A DNA stretch of 64,000 bases from an uncultured Actinomycetota bacterium (GTDB lineage Bacteria; Actinomycetota; Actinomycetes; JACCUZ01): the NCBI GenBank assembly GCA_963726615.1, contig CAVSCX010000003.1, positions 292,238-356,237 of the forward strand, read 5' to 3'. Below, piece by piece: positions 39,502 through 45,857 of the stretch. Under the pieces are notes generated by a model. It worked only from the letters and a program-made list of their open reading frames with translations. It did no database searches and had not been told where the DNA came from. Numbering within the stretch: position 1 is the first letter of the stretch; every line of letters starts with the position of its first letter. The position numbers were made by a program, and so were the translations under genes.

Positions 39502-39579
39502 GGTGATCACGGTGACCGGCTGTGCCTGAACCCGACCTGACCAGTGGTTGGCGTCCCCGGGAGCGGGCAAGCGGGCCAC

Positions 39580-39960
39580 ATGGACGAGACATGGGACCTG
39601 TGGATCCGTGCGGTAGGGGCGACGGGGCTGTCGTTCGCGAGGGCGACTGTCGCCGCGGCGGCCGCCCGCGACCGGGTGCTGGTGCACGCCGCGCCGGAGC
39701 AGCTGGAGGTCGTGGTCCGGGACGGGAACGGCACCCTCGTCGCGGAGGGACGGGAGCTGGCGCGGGGCGAGCCCGGACCCATGACCTACCTGGTGCGGGA
39801 CGGGGACCAGATCCGGCTCGAGGACGGCTGGCCCACCGACGCCGACCTGGGTCGGCTGGTGATCCTGCCCGGCGGCGAGGCCGGTGTGCTCACCGCGTGG
39901 TGGCACGCGGAGGACCGGTCCGAGTGGCGCTGGTCGGTCGAGTTCGCCAACCACGTCTGA
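39580..39960 (+). CDS. Hypothetical protein (126 aa)
   Basis: Start at MDETWDLW. No recognised family. Divergent from the TauE gene. Confidence 0.45.
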   Translation: MDETWDLWIRAVGATGLSFARATVAAAAARDRVLVHAAPEQLEVVVRDGNGTLVAEGRELARGEPGPMTYLVRDGDQIRLEDGWPTDADLGRLVILPGGEAGVLTAWWHAEDRSEWRWSVEFANHV

Positions 39961-39988: not shown

Positions 39989-40768
39989 TCAGCTGCCGGC
40001 CCCCGGGTTGACCACCGCCTGCACGGCGACGAACGCGGCGACCAGCAGGACGAGCCCGGCGAACCCTCGACGCAGACGGTCCGCGGGCAGGCGGGTGGCC
40101 AGTCGCGCCGCGGCCAACGAGCCGGCGACCGCGGCACCGGTGAACACGGCGGCGAGGCCGTAGTCGACCTCCGCGCCGCCGACGTGCGCCGCGAACCCGG
40201 CGGCGGAGTTCACGGTCACCACGACCAGGGACGTGCCGACGGCGACCGCCATCGGCAGCCCCAGCAGCAGGACGAGTGCGGGGACCACGAGGAAGCCGCC
40301 CCCGACGCCGAACAGGCCGGTGAGCAGCCCGACGGCGACGCCCGACCCGATCGCCTTCGGCAGGCAGCCGCGCCAGTCCACCCGGCCGCCCGGCAGCGCG
40401 CAGTCCCCGCCGGCCTCCGGCTGCTCCCGGAGCATCCGGACAGCCGCCACGACCATCACCAGGGCGAAGCCGATGAGCACCATCCGGGGGTCCAGCGCCC
40501 GGTTCACCGCGGTCCCCGCGTAGGCGGCGGGGATACCAGCGGCACCCACGACCGCTGCGATGCGCCACTGGACCTGCCGCGCCCGGATCCGCGGGACGAC
40601 CGCAGCGGCGGCCGAGACCCCGACGACGAGCAACGACGTCGGCACCGCCGCCGACAGCGGCTGATCGGCGCCGTAGACCAGTGCCGGGACGGCGAGGATG
40701 CTGCCTCCGGCACCGAGCAGCCCGAGCAGGACCCCGATGGCCAGCCCGAGCGCGGCCGCGACAGCCAT
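39989..40768 (-). CDS. TauE/SafE (DUF81) sulfite/anion exporter family permease
   Basis: 259 aa. Two internal repeats each with GxGGG ([12 protein letters not shown] and [11 protein letters not shown]). ATGA overlap with upstream gene at 40768. Confidence 0.8.
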
Positions 40769-42153
40769 CAGCGGGCTGCGGCCGTCCTCGGCGCCTCGAG
40801 CCCGGCCTCCGCCGCCGCCGCGTAGTCCTCGTTCACGTGCACGACAGTCCGCCGGTCGACGTCGAGCATCGACGCGGCGATCGCGGCCCGGTACCCGGAG
40901 CCGCAGTACACCCACACCTCGCCGTCCGGCACCTCGGCCAACCGGTCCGGCAGCTCGTGGATGGGGATGTGCATCGACGCTTCGACATGTCCCGTGGCGC
41001 GCTCGTCGTGCCGTCGCGCGTCGAGCACGTGCACCTCGGCACTGTCGTCCTCCCCGAGACGGGCGGCGAGCCCGGCGAAGTCGGAGACGCGGTAGGTGCG
41101 CAGCGGACTTCCGGCGGCCATGGCCTCGACGTCGCCTACCGCGGCGCCCGCCAGCTCGTCGATACCGATGCGCACGAGCTCGCGCCGCGCATCGGCGACC
41201 TGCTCGGACGTCTCGCCGATGAGAGTGAGCGGGGCGCCCCACGGCACCAGCCATCCCACGTAGGTGACGAAGTTCGTACCCAGCTCGAAGTTCCGGCTGC
41301 CCGTCAGGTGACCGGCCGCGAACGCTGTCCGTTCGCGCAGGTCCACGACCCACTCTCCGGCCTCGATCCGTGAGCGCAGCTCGGCCGGGTCGACCGGCCG
41401 GGGGGCGCCGAGGTCGACCGGCTCCGGGCCGCGGTTGTTGGCCGGCCCCATGTGCGCGTAGTAGGCGGGGTAGGCGTCCAGCCCGGCGAGCAGCGTCTCG
41501 ACGTAGGTCTGCTCGTCCTGGGTGAGGGCCGGGTTCGTGGCACGCTGCTCCGCCACGGTGGAGTCGTCGCCTGAGGTCGGGGTGGCCGAGCAGAAGCTGC
41601 CGAACCCGTGGGTGGGCAGCACCTGGGCGTCGGACGGCAGGTCCGCAGCCAGCCGGCGCACCGACCGGTACTGCGCGCGGGTCAGGTCCACGGTGTGCTC
41701 CGGGCCGACGAGGTCCGTCCGGCCGGTGGAGCCGAACAGCATGGACCCGCCGGTCAGGACTGCCTGGACCGGGCCGTCCAGCACCGCGACGGCGTAGGCG
41801 ACGTGGTGGTGGGTGTGGCCCGGGGTGTGCAGCACCGACACCCGTAGGTCCCCCACCTCGAACGTGTCACCGTCGGCCACCGGCGTGTGCGGGAACTGTG
41901 CACCCATGTCGTGCGGCACGACGTAGGAAGCCCCGGCGACAGTCGCCAGCTCGAGGCCGCCGGTGACGTAGTCGTTGTGCCCGTGGGTCTCCGCGACGGC
42001 TGCGATGCGGACTCCCAGCGTCTGCGCCAGGTCCAGCACTCGGTCGATGTCGCGCTGCGGGTCGACGACAAGGGCGACGGTGCCGTCGGTGAGCAGGTAG
42101 CTGCGGTCACCGAGCGACGGTGTCTCGATCACGTGGTGGGTGAGTCCGGACAT
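40768..42153 (-). CDS. Persulfide dioxygenase (ETHE1-like MBL fold) fused to C-terminal rhodanese domain (CstB-like)
   Basis: Start at MSGLTHHV. MBL metal motif AETHGHNDYVTG plus HTPGHT. C-terminal rhodanese with active-site CGSGYRA. Confidence 0.8.
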   Translation of the reverse strand: MSGLTHHVIETPSLGDRSYLLTDGTVALVVDPQRDIDRVLDLAQTLGVRIAAVAETHGHNDYVTGGLELATVAGASYVVPHDMGAQFPHTPVADGDTFEVGDLRVSVLHTPGHTHHHVAYAVAVLDGPVQAVLTGGSMLFGSTGRTDLVGPEHTVDLTRAQYRSVRRLAADLPSDAQVLPTHGFGSFCSATPTSGDDSTVAEQRATNPALTQDEQTYVETLLAGLDAYPAYYAHMGPANNRGPEPVDLGAPRPVDPAELRSRIEAGEWVVDLRERTAFAAGHLTGSRNFELGTNFVTYVGWLVPWGAPLTLIGETSEQVADARRELVRIGIDELAGAAVGDVEAMAAGSPLRTYRVSDFAGLAARLGEDDSAEVHVLDARRHDERATGHVEASMHIPIHELPDRLAEVPDGEVWVYCGSGYRAAIAASMLDVDRRTVVHVNEDYAAAAEAGLEAPRTAAAR

Positions 42154-42169
42154 CTCGCTGCCTCCCGTC

Positions 42170-42517
42170 TCAGGCCGGCTCCGAGCCGGCGACAACCGGG
42201 TTGCCCGCCTTCATCCAGCCGCCGGTGCCCCCGGCGACCGAACGCGCGTCCGCACCGGCCTGGCCGAGCAGCCCGGCGCCGGCCTTGCTCCGGTTCCCCG
42301 AGGCGCAGACGACGAACACCGGGGCTCCGGCTGCCTCCCGTACCAGGTCGTCGGTGTGACGTCCGAGCTGGTCGAGCGGGATGTTGCGCGCGCCAGGGAC
42401 GTGGCCGCCGACGTACTCGTCCGGCTCGCGAACGTCCACGGTCAGCGCGCCCGCTGCATGGGCGGTGGCGAAGTCGGCGAGCTCGGTCTCACGGACGGTG
42501 TTGCCTTGGCTGGACAT
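42170..42517 (-). CDS. Single-domain rhodanese-like sulfurtransferase
   Basis: 115 aa. GAGGAG RBS. Active-site loop CASGNRS. Confidence 0.75.
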   Translation of the reverse strand: MSSQGNTVRETELADFATAHAAGALTVDVREPDEYVGGHVPGARNIPLDQLGRHTDDLVREAAGAPVFVVCASGNRSKAGAGLLGQAGADARSVAGGTGGWMKAGNPVVAGSEPA

Positions 42518-42529
42518 CAACACTCCTCT

Positions 42530-42545
42530 ATACGGGTGGGGGTAT
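42530..42545. promoter_or_regulatory. Operator-like box 1: ATACGGGTGGGGGTAT (ATAC-N8-GTAT), in the 5'UTR of the rhodanese operon
   Basis: Exact reverse complement of box 2. Sits immediately upstream of the rhodanese RBS. Confidence 0.5.
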
Positions 42546-42655
42546 CGTTCGAACCTATCAAGGCGCCGGGACCGGCCCTCATTCCGGTCTGCCCCGGTCA
42601 ACCTCCGACATACCCCGGCGGGGGCGTCTCGCACTCCTGCTTGCGGTATGGCAAC

Positions 42656-42671
42656 ATACCCCCACCCGTAT
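42656..42671. promoter_or_regulatory. Operator-like box 2: ATACCCCCACCCGTAT, 24 nt upstream of the MMPL GTG start
   Basis: Exact reverse complement of box 1, 110 nt away. Same ATAC-N8-GTAT architecture. Confidence 0.5.
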
Positions 42672-42694
42672 CCGAGAAACCGCGAGGACCCTCC

Positions 42695-44869
42695 GTGACG
42701 ACTGCCCCGACCGCCCGCGACACGAGCGTCAGCGGCCCCAAGAACACCAGGGACGACGGTAATGCCCGGCTGGGCCCGCTCGGCCGCCTCGGTGTGTGGA
42801 CCGCCACCCGTGCCCGGACTGTCTTCGTCGTGTGGCTGCTGATCGTCGTCTCCCTGGGGGCCTTCGCGCCGAAGGTGGAGCACGCGCTCGCCGGCGCCGG
42901 CTGGGAGGCGTCGGGGTCGGAGTCGGTCGCCGTGCGGGACATCGCGCACCGCGAGTTCGGCGGGATGTCGAGCGCCGCTCTCCAGGTCGTCGTGCACACC
43001 GACTCGGGCACCGTGACCACCGGTCCCGGCCGGGTCGCGGTCGACCGGGCCGTGGCACTGCTGCGCGCCGACGATCGGGTCTCCACCGTCCAAGCGCCGC
43101 GGCCCGGCACGTCGCTGTCCCCCGACGGACGCACTGCACTGATCCGCGGCGGCGCAGCCAGTGCCAACACCAACGAGATGGTCCGCGCGGCGGACGACCT
43201 CAAGGGACCGGTGCGCGACCTGAGCGGTGACGACGTGACTGTCGCGCTCACGGGGTCGTCCGCGCTGTGGAGCGACTTCAACGCCGCCAACCTCGACGCG
43301 ATGATGAAGAGCGAGCTCATCAGCTGGCCGGTCACACTGGTCATCCTCGTGCTCGCGTTCGGGTCCCTGGTGGCCGCCGGCCTGCCGCTGATGCTGACGA
43401 TCACCGGGCTGGTCGCCGCAGCCGGATCCCTCTACCTCGGCACCCTGCTCGGTGACATCAGCATCTGGGCGATGAACTTCGCGCTGATGTTCGCGCTCGC
43501 GCTGGGCATCGACTACGCACTGTTCGTGGTCGTCCGGTACCGAGCCGCGCGGTTCGGAGACCACCAGAACACCCGGTCAGCCGTTGGCGAGACCATGGAC
43601 ACGGCCGGCAAGGCGGTCCTCTTCTCCGGCGTCACCGTCCTGGTCTCCCTGTCGGCAGTGATGCTGGTGCCGTCGCCGGCCTTCCGCTCGATGGCCCTCG
43701 GCATCATGCTCGCCGTCGTCTTCGTCCTGGCCGCGACGCTGACCCTGCTCCCGGCCGTCCTCGGGAAGCTCGGTCACCGGGTGGACGCCCTCGCACTGCC
43801 CTGGGTGCACGCCGGTGAGCACCGGTCGCTCCGCTTCGAGCGGTGGGCCCAGCGGTTGTGGCGTCGGCCGGTCGGCTACGGACTGCTCGCCCTCGTGGCC
43901 CTCGCTGTCCTCGCAGCCCCGGTGCTGGGACTACGGACCGGGATGCCCTCGATCAAGGTCGTTCCGGAGACCGACTCCAGCCGGGTCGGCTACGCCGCCG
44001 TCCAGGACGCGTTCGGCCCGGGCGCACCAGGCACGCTGCAGGTCGTCGTCCCCCAGGACCGGGCCGGCCGGGCCGCGGCCGTGCTCGCCGACGATCCGGG
44101 AGTGGTCATGGTCATGCCGCCCGCTGCCGGCATTGGGAAGAAGGTCCTGCTGGCCGCCGTACCCGACGACGGCCCGTCCACCCGCGCCCTGGGCACGACG
44201 ATCGACCGGCTCCGTGCCGACCTGCCGTCGGAGGCCCTCGTCGGAGGCCCCTCGGCCGAGAACCACGACCTCGAGCGGCTGCTGGCCGACAAGACACCAC
44301 TGGTCATCGGCGTCGTGCTGGCGCTCGGCTTCCTGCTGCTGCTGGTCGCCCTGCAGGCGCCGCTGGTGGCGGCTCTGGGCACCCTGACGAACCTGCTCGC
44401 CACCGGTGCCGCCTTCGGCGTGGCGAAGCTGATCTTCCAGGACGGGCACGGATCGGGCCTGCTCGGGTTCGAGCCGCAGGGCTTCCTCGACGCCTGGGCT
44501 CCGGTGTTCTTCTTCGCCATGATCTTCGCCATCGGCATGGACTACACCGTCTTCCTGCTGGCGTCCGCGAAGGAGCACTGGGAGCGGTCGAACGACGCAC
44601 GCGAGGCGATGGTGGGCGGGCTGGCGCACTCCGGCCGGGTCATCTTCGCCGCTGCCGGCGTGATGGTCGCTGTCTTCTTCACCTTCGCCCTGTCCGGCCC
44701 GCTCCCCCCGAAGGAGATGGGTGTCGTCCTCGGCGTCGCCGTGCTCCTCGACGCAGCGCTGGTCCGTCTCCTGCTGCTGCCGGTGCTCCTGCGACTCAGC
44801 GGCCGAGCCGCGTGGGCTTCGCCCTCCTGGTTGCGCCGGCTGCTGCCGCGGGTGCGGTTCAGCCACTGA
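42695..44869 (+). CDS. MMPL-family (RND superfamily) membrane transporter
   Basis: 724 aa from GTG preceded by GAGGA. Two 6-TM bundles each followed by an extracytoplasmic domain. Confidence 0.8.
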   Translation: MTTAPTARDTSVSGPKNTRDDGNARLGPLGRLGVWTATRARTVFVVWLLIVVSLGAFAPKVEHALAGAGWEASGSESVAVRDIAHREFGGMSSAALQVVVHTDSGTVTTGPGRVAVDRAVALLRADDRVSTVQAPRPGTSLSPDGRTALIRGGAASANTNEMVRAADDLKGPVRDLSGDDVTVALTGSSALWSDFNAANLDAMMKSELISWPVTLVILVLAFGSLVAAGLPLMLTITGLVAAAGSLYLGTLLGDISIWAMNFALMFALALGIDYALFVVVRYRAARFGDHQNTRSAVGETMDTAGKAVLFSGVTVLVSLSAVMLVPSPAFRSMALGIMLAVVFVLAATLTLLPAVLGKLGHRVDALALPWVHAGEHRSLRFERWAQRLWRRPVGYGLLALVALAVLAAPVLGLRTGMPSIKVVPETDSSRVGYAAVQDAFGPGAPGTLQVVVPQDRAGRAAAVLADDPGVVMVMPPAAGIGKKVLLAAVPDDGPSTRALGTTIDRLRADLPSEALVGGPSAENHDLERLLADKTPLVIGVVLALGFLLLLVALQAPLVAALGTLTNLLATGAAFGVAKLIFQDGHGSGLLGFEPQGFLDAWAPVFFFAMIFAIGMDYTVFLLASAKEHWERSNDAREAMVGGLAHSGRVIFAAAGVMVAVFFTFALSGPLPPKEMGVVLGVAVLLDAALVRLLLLPVLLRLSGRAAWASPSWLRRLLPRVRFSH

Positions 44870-44876
44870 AAGGCGC

Positions 44877-44892
44877 ATACCCTGGCGTGTAT
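44877..44892. promoter_or_regulatory. Operator-like box 3: ATACCCTGGCGTGTAT, 19 nt upstream of the CstR-like gene
   Basis: Same ATAC-N8-GTAT frame as boxes 1 and 2, with a less G/C-run core. Confidence 0.4.
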
Positions 44893-44910
44893 CGAGAGAG
44901 TGGAGTCGTC

Positions 44911-45171
44911 GTGCAGGTGGACCTCGAGACCGTCGGACCGGTCGTGAACCGGCTCAAGCGCGCCCAGGGGCAGCTGGCCGGGGTGCTGCGGATGCTGGAG
45001 GAGGAGCGGGACTGCGCGGACGTCGTGACCCAGCTCGCCGCGGTGTCCCGTGCGCTGGACAAGGCAGGGTTCGCCCTCATCGCGGCCGGCCTCGAGCAAT
45101 GTCTCCGTGCCGGCGACGACGGTGCGCTGGACCGCGAGAAGCTCGAGAAGGTCTTCATGTCGCTGGCCTGA
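44911..45171 (+). CDS. CsoR/RcnR-family (DUF156) repressor, CstR-like (two Cys, no His)
   Basis: 86 aa from GTG. VNRLKRAQGQLAGVLRMLEEERDCADVVTQLAAVSRALDKAGFALIAAGLEQC. Cys residues 29 apart, as in S. aureus CstR. No His at the Cu-ligand position. Confidence 0.7.
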   Translation: MQVDLETVGPVVNRLKRAQGQLAGVLRMLEEERDCADVVTQLAAVSRALDKAGFALIAAGLEQCLRAGDDGALDREKLEKVFMSLA

Positions 45172-45245
45172 CCTGGCTGCCGACCGGCACGGCATTGGCC
45201 GGCTCGGCCGTGCGGGGTCCGACGGCAGCTCGCGGCGATCCAGGC

Positions 45246-45857
45246 TCAGGCGGACCCGGTCAGGGCAGGCAGCCGTCGCCGGCGGCGCACCGCCACTGCG
45301 CTGAGCGCGAGCAGGACGACGGCGAGCGCAGCTGCACCGGCCAGCACCCGACCGGCGACGGGCTGCGGACCGTCGTCGCCGAGCGGGCCCGGGTCGAACG
45401 AGGCGCTGAGTCCCAGTCCGCGGACGGGACCGGCCTCGGCGACGTGGACCTCGCCGGTGGCCGTCCCGACTGTGGGCCCCAACGTCGCCACCCGCAGGAC
45501 CCACCGGCCGGCCGGCAGGTGGATCCGTGCGGTGTAGAGACCGGGCGCGGACCGGTCCGGCATCAGGCGCACGGAGCGCTCGCCCTGGGGGCCGGACAGG
45601 GCCGCCAGCACGAACTCGTCCACGACCGGCTCGCGGTCGCCGGCGTAGACGACGAGGGCCTGGACGACGGCGGCCGATGCGTCACCGGCCACCGCCAGCC
45701 TGATCTCGGAGGTGCCGCTGTGGGCGTCGGCCGGCGCCGACGCCAGGCCGGTCAGGGCTGCGACGAGGCATAGCAGCGCGACGTACCGACGGACCGCCCT
45801 GGGCGCGCGGGCGCGAAGCGGCTTTCCGGCAGGCGCCGCCTTCGCTGTCCCGACCAT
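45246..45857 (-). CDS. Secreted, C-terminally TM-anchored hypothetical protein with predicted mature N-terminal His
   Basis: Start at MVGTAKAAP... Signal ...LTGLASAPADA|HSGTSE. C-terminal TM plus RRRRR stop-transfer. Confidence 0.45.
   Translation of the reverse strand: MVGTAKAAPAGKPLRARAPRAVRRYVALLCLVAALTGLASAPADAHSGTSEIRLAVAGDASAAVVQALVVYAGDREPVVDEFVLAALSGPQGERSVRLMPDRSAPGLYTARIHLPAGRWVLRVATLGPTVGTATGEVHVAEAGPVRGLGLSASFDPGPLGDDGPQPVAGRVLAGAAALAVVLLALSAVAVRRRRRLPALTGSA

Follow-up and report, generated by a model that had tools for sequence, protein, structure and literature searches.

A probable CstR-type persulfide-sensing repressor, its predicted operators and an adjoining MMPL transporter gene in an uncultured actinomycete

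Does a small CsoR-family repressor that naming sources label merely as a "metal-sensitive" or "FrmR family" regulator respond to a metal, or does it respond to reactive sulfur? This question is raised by a gene, here called cstR, in a stretch of 64,000 nucleotides (nt) from an uncultured Actinomycetota bacterium (GenBank assembly GCA_963726615.1, contig CAVSCX010000003.1, positions 292,238 to 356,237 of the forward strand). We refer to the whole stretch as the window; its G+C content is 73.9%. The original prediction, made from the letters alone, held that the gene encodes a CstR-like persulfide sensor rather than a Cu(I) sensor and that it has an operator box of its own. We consider it likely that the cstR product is a homotetrameric CstR-type repressor that would sense persulfide or sulfane sulfur, not Cu(I), through two cysteines.

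The cstR frame runs for 86 codons, from an in-frame GTG at 44911 to a TGA stop at 45169-45171, and its product is VQVDLETVGPVVNRLKRAQGQLAGVLRMLEEERDCADVVTQLAAVSRALDKAGFALIAAGLEQCLRAGDDGALDREKLEKVFMSLA. In the list of open reading frames (ORFs) the gene is visible only as the tail of a 442-amino-acid (aa) ORF (43843..45171), which had been suspected of being spurious. Codon-position G+C splits this ORF into two parts. The upstream 342 codons have a third-position G+C (GC3) of 0.49 and are an off-frame reading of the neighboring MMPL transporter gene, whereas the last 87 codons have values of 0.80/0.40/0.91 at the three positions, like the well-established genes nearby. The long ORF is therefore spurious and cstR is genuine, as suspected. 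Antisense or overlapping ORFs across cstR (99 aa, 320 aa and 350 aa) were ruled out on their non-coding codon-position G+C profiles. The same 86-aa gene was called independently in the public record of this contig (ENA ERZ25039476, contig_2619, 1.9 Mb). The protein has an identical copy in NCBI/ENA and more than 7,000 homologs at E ≤ 1e-5, and exactly 86 aa is the length of most among the best 120 of them. We conclude that cstR is a real gene, conserved in thousands of actinomycete sequences. No second CsoR paralog was found in the 64-kb window by tblastn.

A profile search matched residues 11-81 of the 86 to PF02583 (DUF156) with an E-value of 1.2e-22 and a score of 80.5 bits against a cutoff of 22.8, and nine PDB members of the CsoR family were matched as well. 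This bears out the predicted family. The "four-helix signature" ascribed to the product needs amending, since the CsoR protomer has three helices and the four-helix bundle is made by the dimer. The protein contains Cys35 (in ERDC) and Cys64 (in LEQC), 29 residues apart, and not a single histidine. In pairwise alignment with M. tuberculosis CsoR (MtCsoR; the sequence used is 100% identical to PDB 2HH7), the two cysteines fall on Cys36 and Cys65, and Gly60 falls on the Cu(I)-ligand His61. Gly60 also stands opposite the ligand His of Geobacillus CsoR (GtCsoR), InrS and Thermus CsoR (TtCsoR), so none of these alignments yields a His/Cys/Cys Cu(I) triad; in S. pneumoniae CstR (SpCstR), the same position is occupied by the Asn55 "wedge". 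Asp34 sits at the second-shell position that is Tyr35 in MtCsoR. Tyr is kept there in MtCsoR, GtCsoR and TtCsoR, and SpCstR has Asp too.

These positions are highly conserved among relatives of the window protein. Using regulator homologs, we fetched 81 related loci (1.03 Mb in total). Cys35, Gly60 and Cys64 are invariant across all of them, and the second-shell residue is D or E in 80. The spacing C-x24-G-x3-C was found in 115 of the 120 best homologs. All characterized Cu sensors keep x-C-H-C or x-C-H-H at the four W-X-Y-Z ligand positions (Fakhoury et al. 2021, PMC8643695), whereas the window protein has the x-C-x-C pattern, with Gln2/Val3 at W followed by Cys35, Gly60 and Cys64. The two-cysteine pattern had been said to define CstR. 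CstR-type clusters do show it characteristically, yet the pattern alone does not suffice for such a definition.

Other members of the superfamily fit poorly. The RcnR/InrS determinants (His3, His60, His/Cys64) are not present, nor are those of FrmR (Pro2, His60), the N-terminus here being M/V-Q-V-D; both identities were ruled out on ligand positions. The corresponding NCBIfam models scored 28 bits against a cutoff of 138 for RcnR and 28.5 bits against 133 for FrmR, and even the best NCBIfam match, RicR, reached 44 bits, far below its cutoff of 175. The best solved relative is SpCstR (7MQ1/7MQ2/7MQ3), with an E-value of 7e-14 against only 9e-9 for MtCsoR, and SpCstR and the window protein have the motif RDCAD(I/V)VTQL in common. 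These three PDB entries are of C9A SpCstR, a demonstrated persulfide sensor, and were deposited as "copper-sensing repressor CsoR" (PMC8643695). The ligand positions, the closest solved relative and the sulfur-handling neighbors described below all support a CstR-type rather than a Cu-sensing member of the family, in keeping with the original prediction.

Two divergent transcription units make up the locus. A minus-strand operon starting from box 1 comprises genes for a rhodanese, a persulfide dioxygenase (PDO)-rhodanese fusion and a TauE-type exporter, and the plus-strand unit consists of the MMPL gene and cstR. The best PDB matches of the PDO-rhodanese are 3TP9 (E 5e-63) and 3R2U (E 4e-41), with ETHE1 and BpPRF also matched. 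Rhodanese, PDO-rhodanese and TauE genes lie next to the regulator in most of the 81 related loci. We found no copA/copZ-type gene among the 16 called genes within 8 kb on either side of cstR, and no SQR gene within 8 kb of it.

The operators tie these genes together. Exactly three sites matching ATAC-N8-GTAT occur in the window, all of them at this locus; the expected number was 0.00, with no match in any of 100 shuffles, and allowing one mismatch added no further site. Each is found 12-23 nt ahead of a start codon. Box 1 is the exact reverse complement of box 2, so that each reads ATACCCCCACCCGTAT toward its own gene. The third box, predicted to stand before the cstR GTG, is present at 44877-44892. 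It begins 8 nt past the MMPL stop codon, and 18 nt separate its end from the GTG, whose first letter is thus the 19th nt past the box. Seven relatives share the MMPL-cstR arrangement, with MMPL proteins 76-100% identical to that of the window. In these, box 3 keeps its ATACCCT and GTAT unchanged, whereas its five central bases differ and the sequence on either side carries insertions or other indels.

The same element is abundant in the wider sample. The related loci contain 121 boxes against about 1.6 expected, with at least one box in 72 of the 81 loci and a box no more than 120 nt upstream of the regulator gene in 40. Since they are enriched in these loci and conserved among relatives, we regard the boxes as a genuine conserved cis-element tied to this regulator family. 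Nearly all boxes in the related loci are of the type ATACC(C)...(G)GGTAT. Those of the window have a one-sided C-tract (ATACCC-N5-[C/T]GTAT) and not a palindromic CCCC..GGGG. Separately, we observed that the asymmetric type is also the regulator-proximal box in Arthrobacter-type loci (ATACCCCACCGAGTAT).

The stretch between boxes 1 and 2 includes a degenerate element, ATACCCCGGCGGGGGC. Four related loci (L002-L005) retain the ATACCCCG half, with a TTGAC motif resembling a -35 element after it. The element may be an auxiliary half-site or may belong to the MMPL promoter, although the case is weak. A relaxed search of the window for ATACCCNNNNGGGTAT with up to three mismatches gave 5 matches against 4.9 expected, so this pattern is uninformative and only the strict ATAC-N8-GTAT pattern carries information.

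The closest characterized system is that of Streptomyces coelicolor. ScCsoR (SCO0620), also known as CstR, has Cys37 and Cys66 at a 29-residue spacing. Its targets are PDO(-rhodanese)-TauE, a rhodanese and its own gene, all repressed from 16-bp operators of the form ATACCn6GGTAT; one such operator sits at position -9 of a promoter whose leader is 12 nt long (Lu et al. 2020, PMC7533328). Polysulfide releases the repressor, which controls sulfane sulfur in the cell; both cysteines are required, but only Cys37-SSH was detected, without crosslinks (PMC7533328). The window protein resembles it in actinomycete origin, length (about 86-88 aa) and cysteine spacing (35/64 here versus 37/66). As a stand-in for SCO0620 itself we used the homolog from S. 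beihaiensis (L075, a Rhod/TauE/PDO locus), which is 63% identical to the window protein. The two loci have an identical set of PDO-rhodanese, TauE, rhodanese and regulator genes, neither has SQR, and both have 16-bp ATAC...GTAT operators near start codons, with autoregulation shown for ScCsoR and predicted here. The two systems differ in that the window regulator is second in an MMPL-headed unit, whereas the four-gene Streptomyces circuit has no MMPL gene, and in the one-sided C-tract of the window operators. By analogy, the placement of the window boxes 12-23 nt before start codons would parallel the S. coelicolor operator that overlaps the -10/start region of a short-leader promoter.

Both proteins belong to a wider group. 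Cluster 3 of a published sequence similarity network (SSN) holds 3,175 largely uncharacterized actinomycete candidate persulfide (RSSH) sensors, ScCsoR and Rv1766 among them, which have the x-C-x-C motif and lie near genes for sulfur detoxification (PMC8643695). A literature search on Rv1766 and persulfide found nothing relevant. Judged by its sequence and gene context, the window protein agrees with this description of SSN cluster 3 in every feature testable here, and the group has already been described.

Is cstR autoregulated through box 3, as the original prediction suggested? The box matches the operator type of the autoregulated Streptomyces ortholog, ScCsoR, which acts on a box in its own promoter (PMC7533328). 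In addition, 40 of the 81 related loci have a box close upstream of the regulator, and the window box is kept in seven relatives amid varying surroundings. Actinomycete -10 elements follow the pattern TANNNT. The invariant TACCCT inside box 3 fits this pattern and is absent from boxes 1 and 2, which hints that it may double as a -10 hexamer of an internal, self-repressed cstR promoter. The alternative is that box 3 serves as a roadblock or attenuating site in a single MMPL-cstR transcript, or has no independent function, with cstR expressed by read-through from box 2 alone. Merely 41 nt lie between the MMPL stop codon and the cstR start, and a consensus promoter scan was negative. RNA folding revealed no terminator or stable hairpin in this spacer (z +1.5). 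The spacer and the region downstream of cstR fold no better than shuffled sequence, giving no evidence of an attenuator or terminator, and the only terminator-like site in 42400-45400 lies within the MMPL coding region. With no terminator or stable structure in between, read-through from MMPL into cstR is likely. We nevertheless think it rather unlikely that box 3 is only a roadblock or idle. Moreover, a roadblock bound by the gene's own product is still autoregulation, so binding of the cstR product to box 3 just upstream of cstR is autoregulation whether the box marks a promoter or a roadblock.

Table 1. Positions of the genes and sequence elements at the cstR locus, in window coordinates.
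Feature	Position	Strand	Evidence
cstR-like gene, 86-aa CsoR-family (PF02583) repressor, Cys35/Gly60/Cys64	44911..45171	+	translation, Pfam, GC3, public gene call
Shine-Dalgarno GGAG, 5 nt before cstR GTG	44902..44905	+	direct reading; purine-rich stretch at same place in relatives
Box 3, ATACCCTGGCGTGTAT, predicted CstR operator	44877..44892	+	ATAC-N8-GTAT match, conserved in 7 relatives
MMPL/RND-family transporter, 724 aa, first gene of MMPL-cstR unit	42695..44869	+	PF03176 E 1.7e-69, gene call
Box 2, ATACCCCCACCCGTAT, predicted operator 23 nt before MMPL GTG	42656..42671	+	conserved in L002-L005, L007
Degenerate half-box ATACCCCGGCGGGGGC, between boxes 1 and 2	42610..42625	+	3 mismatches to ATACCCNNNNGGGTAT, not above chance alone
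Box 1, reads ATACCCCCACCCGTAT toward rhodanese, 12 nt before its ATG	42530..42545	-	invariant in L002-L005
Single-domain rhodanese, 115 aa, first gene of divergent operon	42170..42517	-	PF00581 E 1.6e-15
Metallo-beta-lactamase-fold PDO-rhodanese fusion, 461 aa, CstB/type III PDO-like	40768..42153	-	Pfam Rhodanese, Lactamase_B
TauE/SafE-family sulfite exporter, 259 aa, start overlaps PDO stop codon	39989..40768	-	PF01925 E 3.6e-49

The firmicute CstRs, namely SpCstR (7MQ1), E. faecalis CstR (SSN cluster 10) and S. aureus CstR (SSN cluster 4), offer a second comparison. They share with the window protein the x-C-x-C pattern, the lack of a His ligand and, in SpCstR, the RDCAD(I/V)VTQL motif around the attacking cysteine, and their targets are rhodanese, persulfide-dioxygenase and TauE-type genes, as is predicted here. 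They fall into separate SSN clusters, however, and have the Asn55 wedge in place of the clade-invariant Gly60. In SpCstR, this wedge replaces the Cu-ligand His and tunes reactivity (PMC8643695). SQR or CoA-persulfide reductase is encoded in firmicute cst operons but is missing from the window locus. Tri- and tetrasulfide crosslinks have been recorded with firmicute CstRs, whereas none are on record for the actinomycete protein.

The lack of a wedge bears on a second alternative, in which cstR would encode a broader sensor of thiol redox state or electrophiles (peroxide, hypochlorite, quinones, aldehydes, sulfite), with the sulfur genes as only one component of a wider response to thiol stress. 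In vitro, simple oxidants such as tetrathionate react with CstRs as reactive sulfur species do, and CstR specificity is kinetic and not absolute (PMC8643695). The clade has Gly where SpCstR has its reactivity-tuning Asn, and thioredoxin and OsmC-type genes are found in some related operons. However, in most of the 81 loci the genes under control serve specifically to handle persulfide and sulfite (rhodanese, PDO-rhodanese, TauE, DUF302), the S. coelicolor ortholog responds to polysulfide and controls cellular sulfane sulfur, and the FrmR and RcnR/InrS determinants are absent. We consider a sensor of such breadth improbable.

A Cu(I)-sensing CsoR with a reduced two-cysteine site, governing copper export, is scarcely credible: although the window protein shares with MtCsoR (2HH7), S. 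lividans CsoR (4ADZ), Geobacillus CsoR (4M1P) and RicR the PF02583 fold and family, both ligand-cysteine positions and a similar operator architecture (the ATAC-G/C tract-GTAT type is common to Cu-CsoR and RicR operators), and although its top NCBIfam match is RicR, it has Gly for His61 in 81 of 81 loci, Asp for the second-shell Tyr35, no other His and no MtCsoR-type C-terminal tail, and there are no CopA/CopZ-type genes within 8 kb and all regulated neighbors are sulfur-handling.

Several other observations weigh against reading cstR as a CstR-type repressor. Overall identity does not discriminate, being 40% to SpCstR (72 aa) and thus no higher than the 41% to MtCsoR (54 aa), so the assignment rests on ligand positions, the shared motif, E-values and context. 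The window boxes begin with ATACC but end in CGTAT or TGTAT where the ScCsoR consensus has GGTAT, and their G/C tract is not palindromic. A scan of 42400-45400 detected no sigma-70-type promoter, although such a scan is uninformative for an actinomycete with 74% G+C. Five homologs with 77-79% identity (P0091, P0097, P0108, P0115 and P0119) keep Cys35 and Gly60 but have Ala at position 64 (LEQA or LDQA). Because these close homologs lack the second cysteine, a two-cysteine crosslink cannot be obligatory across the clade, and their sequences suggest that the N-terminal cysteine alone may suffice for sensing in part of it. Finally, the primary sequence leaves room for metal binding, and S. aureus CstR is reported to bind Cu(I) in vitro, yet not to respond to it.

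We still favor a CstR-type repressor of sulfur-handling genes, and propose the following circuit. It builds on what was observed here, namely the family, the ligand positions, the conserved operators and the neighboring genes, and borrows the oligomeric state, cysteine chemistry, derepression and promoter positions from relatives. The reduced tetramer would occupy the three ATAC-N8-GTAT operators. Box 1 would shut off rhodanese, PDO-rhodanese and TauE, box 2 would shut off MMPL-cstR, and box 3 would either repress a weak internal cstR promoter (autoregulation) or block read-through from MMPL. As organic or inorganic persulfides or polysulfides rise, Cys35, which corresponds to the N-terminal attacking cysteine of CstRs, would be persulfidated. 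The Cys35-SSH might then be kept and stabilized by Cys64' as in ScCsoR, or form a di-, tri- or tetrasulfide link to the neighboring subunit's Cys64' as in S. aureus and enterococcal CstR. The affinity for DNA would drop and both divergent units would be transcribed. Sulfane sulfur would be transferred by the rhodanese, oxidized to sulfite or thiosulfate by the PDO-rhodanese and exported by TauE and perhaps by MMPL, until newly made reduced repressor restored repression and closed the loop. Missing crosslinks would not refute the CstR assignment, because ScCsoR shows none and five close homologs have Ala64.

Not every related locus is built like that of the window. In Nocardioides- and Kribbella-type loci, the regulator is the last gene of a box-headed thioredoxin-DUF302-regulator or DUF302-regulator operon and is not preceded by an MMPL gene. 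Such box-headed DUF302 operons occupy L013 6160-6998, L025 6136-7001, L016 6591-7001, L010 6170-6999 and L020 6136-6995. At the far end of the window locus, a DUF7712 gene (39544-39960, plus strand) converges on TauE. It occupies the same place in L001-L003, has no box and is probably outside the CstR regulon.

This leaves the MMPL transporter, which is possibly the only new element of the locus. Its closest solved structures are MmpL3, MmpL5 and MmpL4. The supported start is the GTG at 42695, which has an AGGA 6 nt upstream, gives a 724-aa protein and agrees with the public gene call. A 909-aa reading from a GTG at 42140 (42140-44869) was rejected as an artefact, since such a frame would cross all of the divergent promoter region and run antisense to the rhodanese gene. 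The transporter has no cysteine; among its best 120 homologs, 91 likewise have none and 27 have one.

MMPL orthologs (64-100% identity) are present in 18 of the 81 loci that were fetched through the regulator, and in all 18 they belong to a box-headed unit. In 12 of these a box lies 24-106 nt upstream of MMPL, and in the other 6 MMPL comes last in a Rhod-PDO-(TauE)-MMPL cluster. Sampling in the reverse direction, we took six MMPL homologs (72-76% identity, L082-L087) on the sole criterion of long contigs. All six adjoin sulfur-stress genes (DUF302, rhodanese, OsmC, TauE, PDO, DsrE/DsrC). Two have a CsoR-like gene and ATAC-N8-GTAT boxes 22-42 nt upstream of MMPL, and one has a rhodanese gene next downstream. 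Loci from both samples with MMPL in a reactive-sulfur context include L013, L018, L023, L028, L044, L046, L048, L053, L063, L071, L072 and L082-L087.

In the reverse sample, three of the six MMPL genes are preceded by an ArsR-family (HTH_5/HTH_20) regulator with a C-terminal CEQVC motif (L082 5607-5966, L085 5463-6013, L087 5409-6004). A YgaP-like transmembrane peptide of 70-85 aa lies between regulator and transporter in L085 and L087, and DUF302, or rhodanese and OsmC, follow downstream of the ArsR-preceded genes. This regulator is possibly another thiol-based sensor acting on the pump, unrelated to the CstR type. Two unrelated sensor families adjoining one pump would suggest that MMPL exports a product of sulfur stress, although the samples are small. 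The cargo might be a persulfidated thiol or lipid, or else zero-valent sulfur or polysulfide in membrane-soluble form. We hold only tentatively, and with more doubt than confidence, that this MMPL/RND subfamily is a pump induced by reactive sulfur species. A search of a limited collection of literature found no paper tying MMPL proteins to CstR, reactive sulfur, or DUF302/rhodanese.

For annotation, cstR, a gene invisible in a naive longest-ORF track, would be better named a CstR-type sulfane-sulfur-responsive repressor, with the flanking genes as its regulon. Biologically, little goes beyond what S. coelicolor ScCsoR and SSN cluster 3 have already taught, but three points do. First, the position held in firmicute CstRs by the reactivity-tuning Asn wedge is always Gly in this clade. 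Second, a sub-lineage without the second cysteine bears on whether actinomycete CstR sensing needs a crosslink. Third, an MMPL transporter belongs to the predicted regulon here and in many actinomycetes from soil. Should this last link prove functional, the transporter would be the first of the MMPL proteins with a known role in reactive-sulfur homeostasis.

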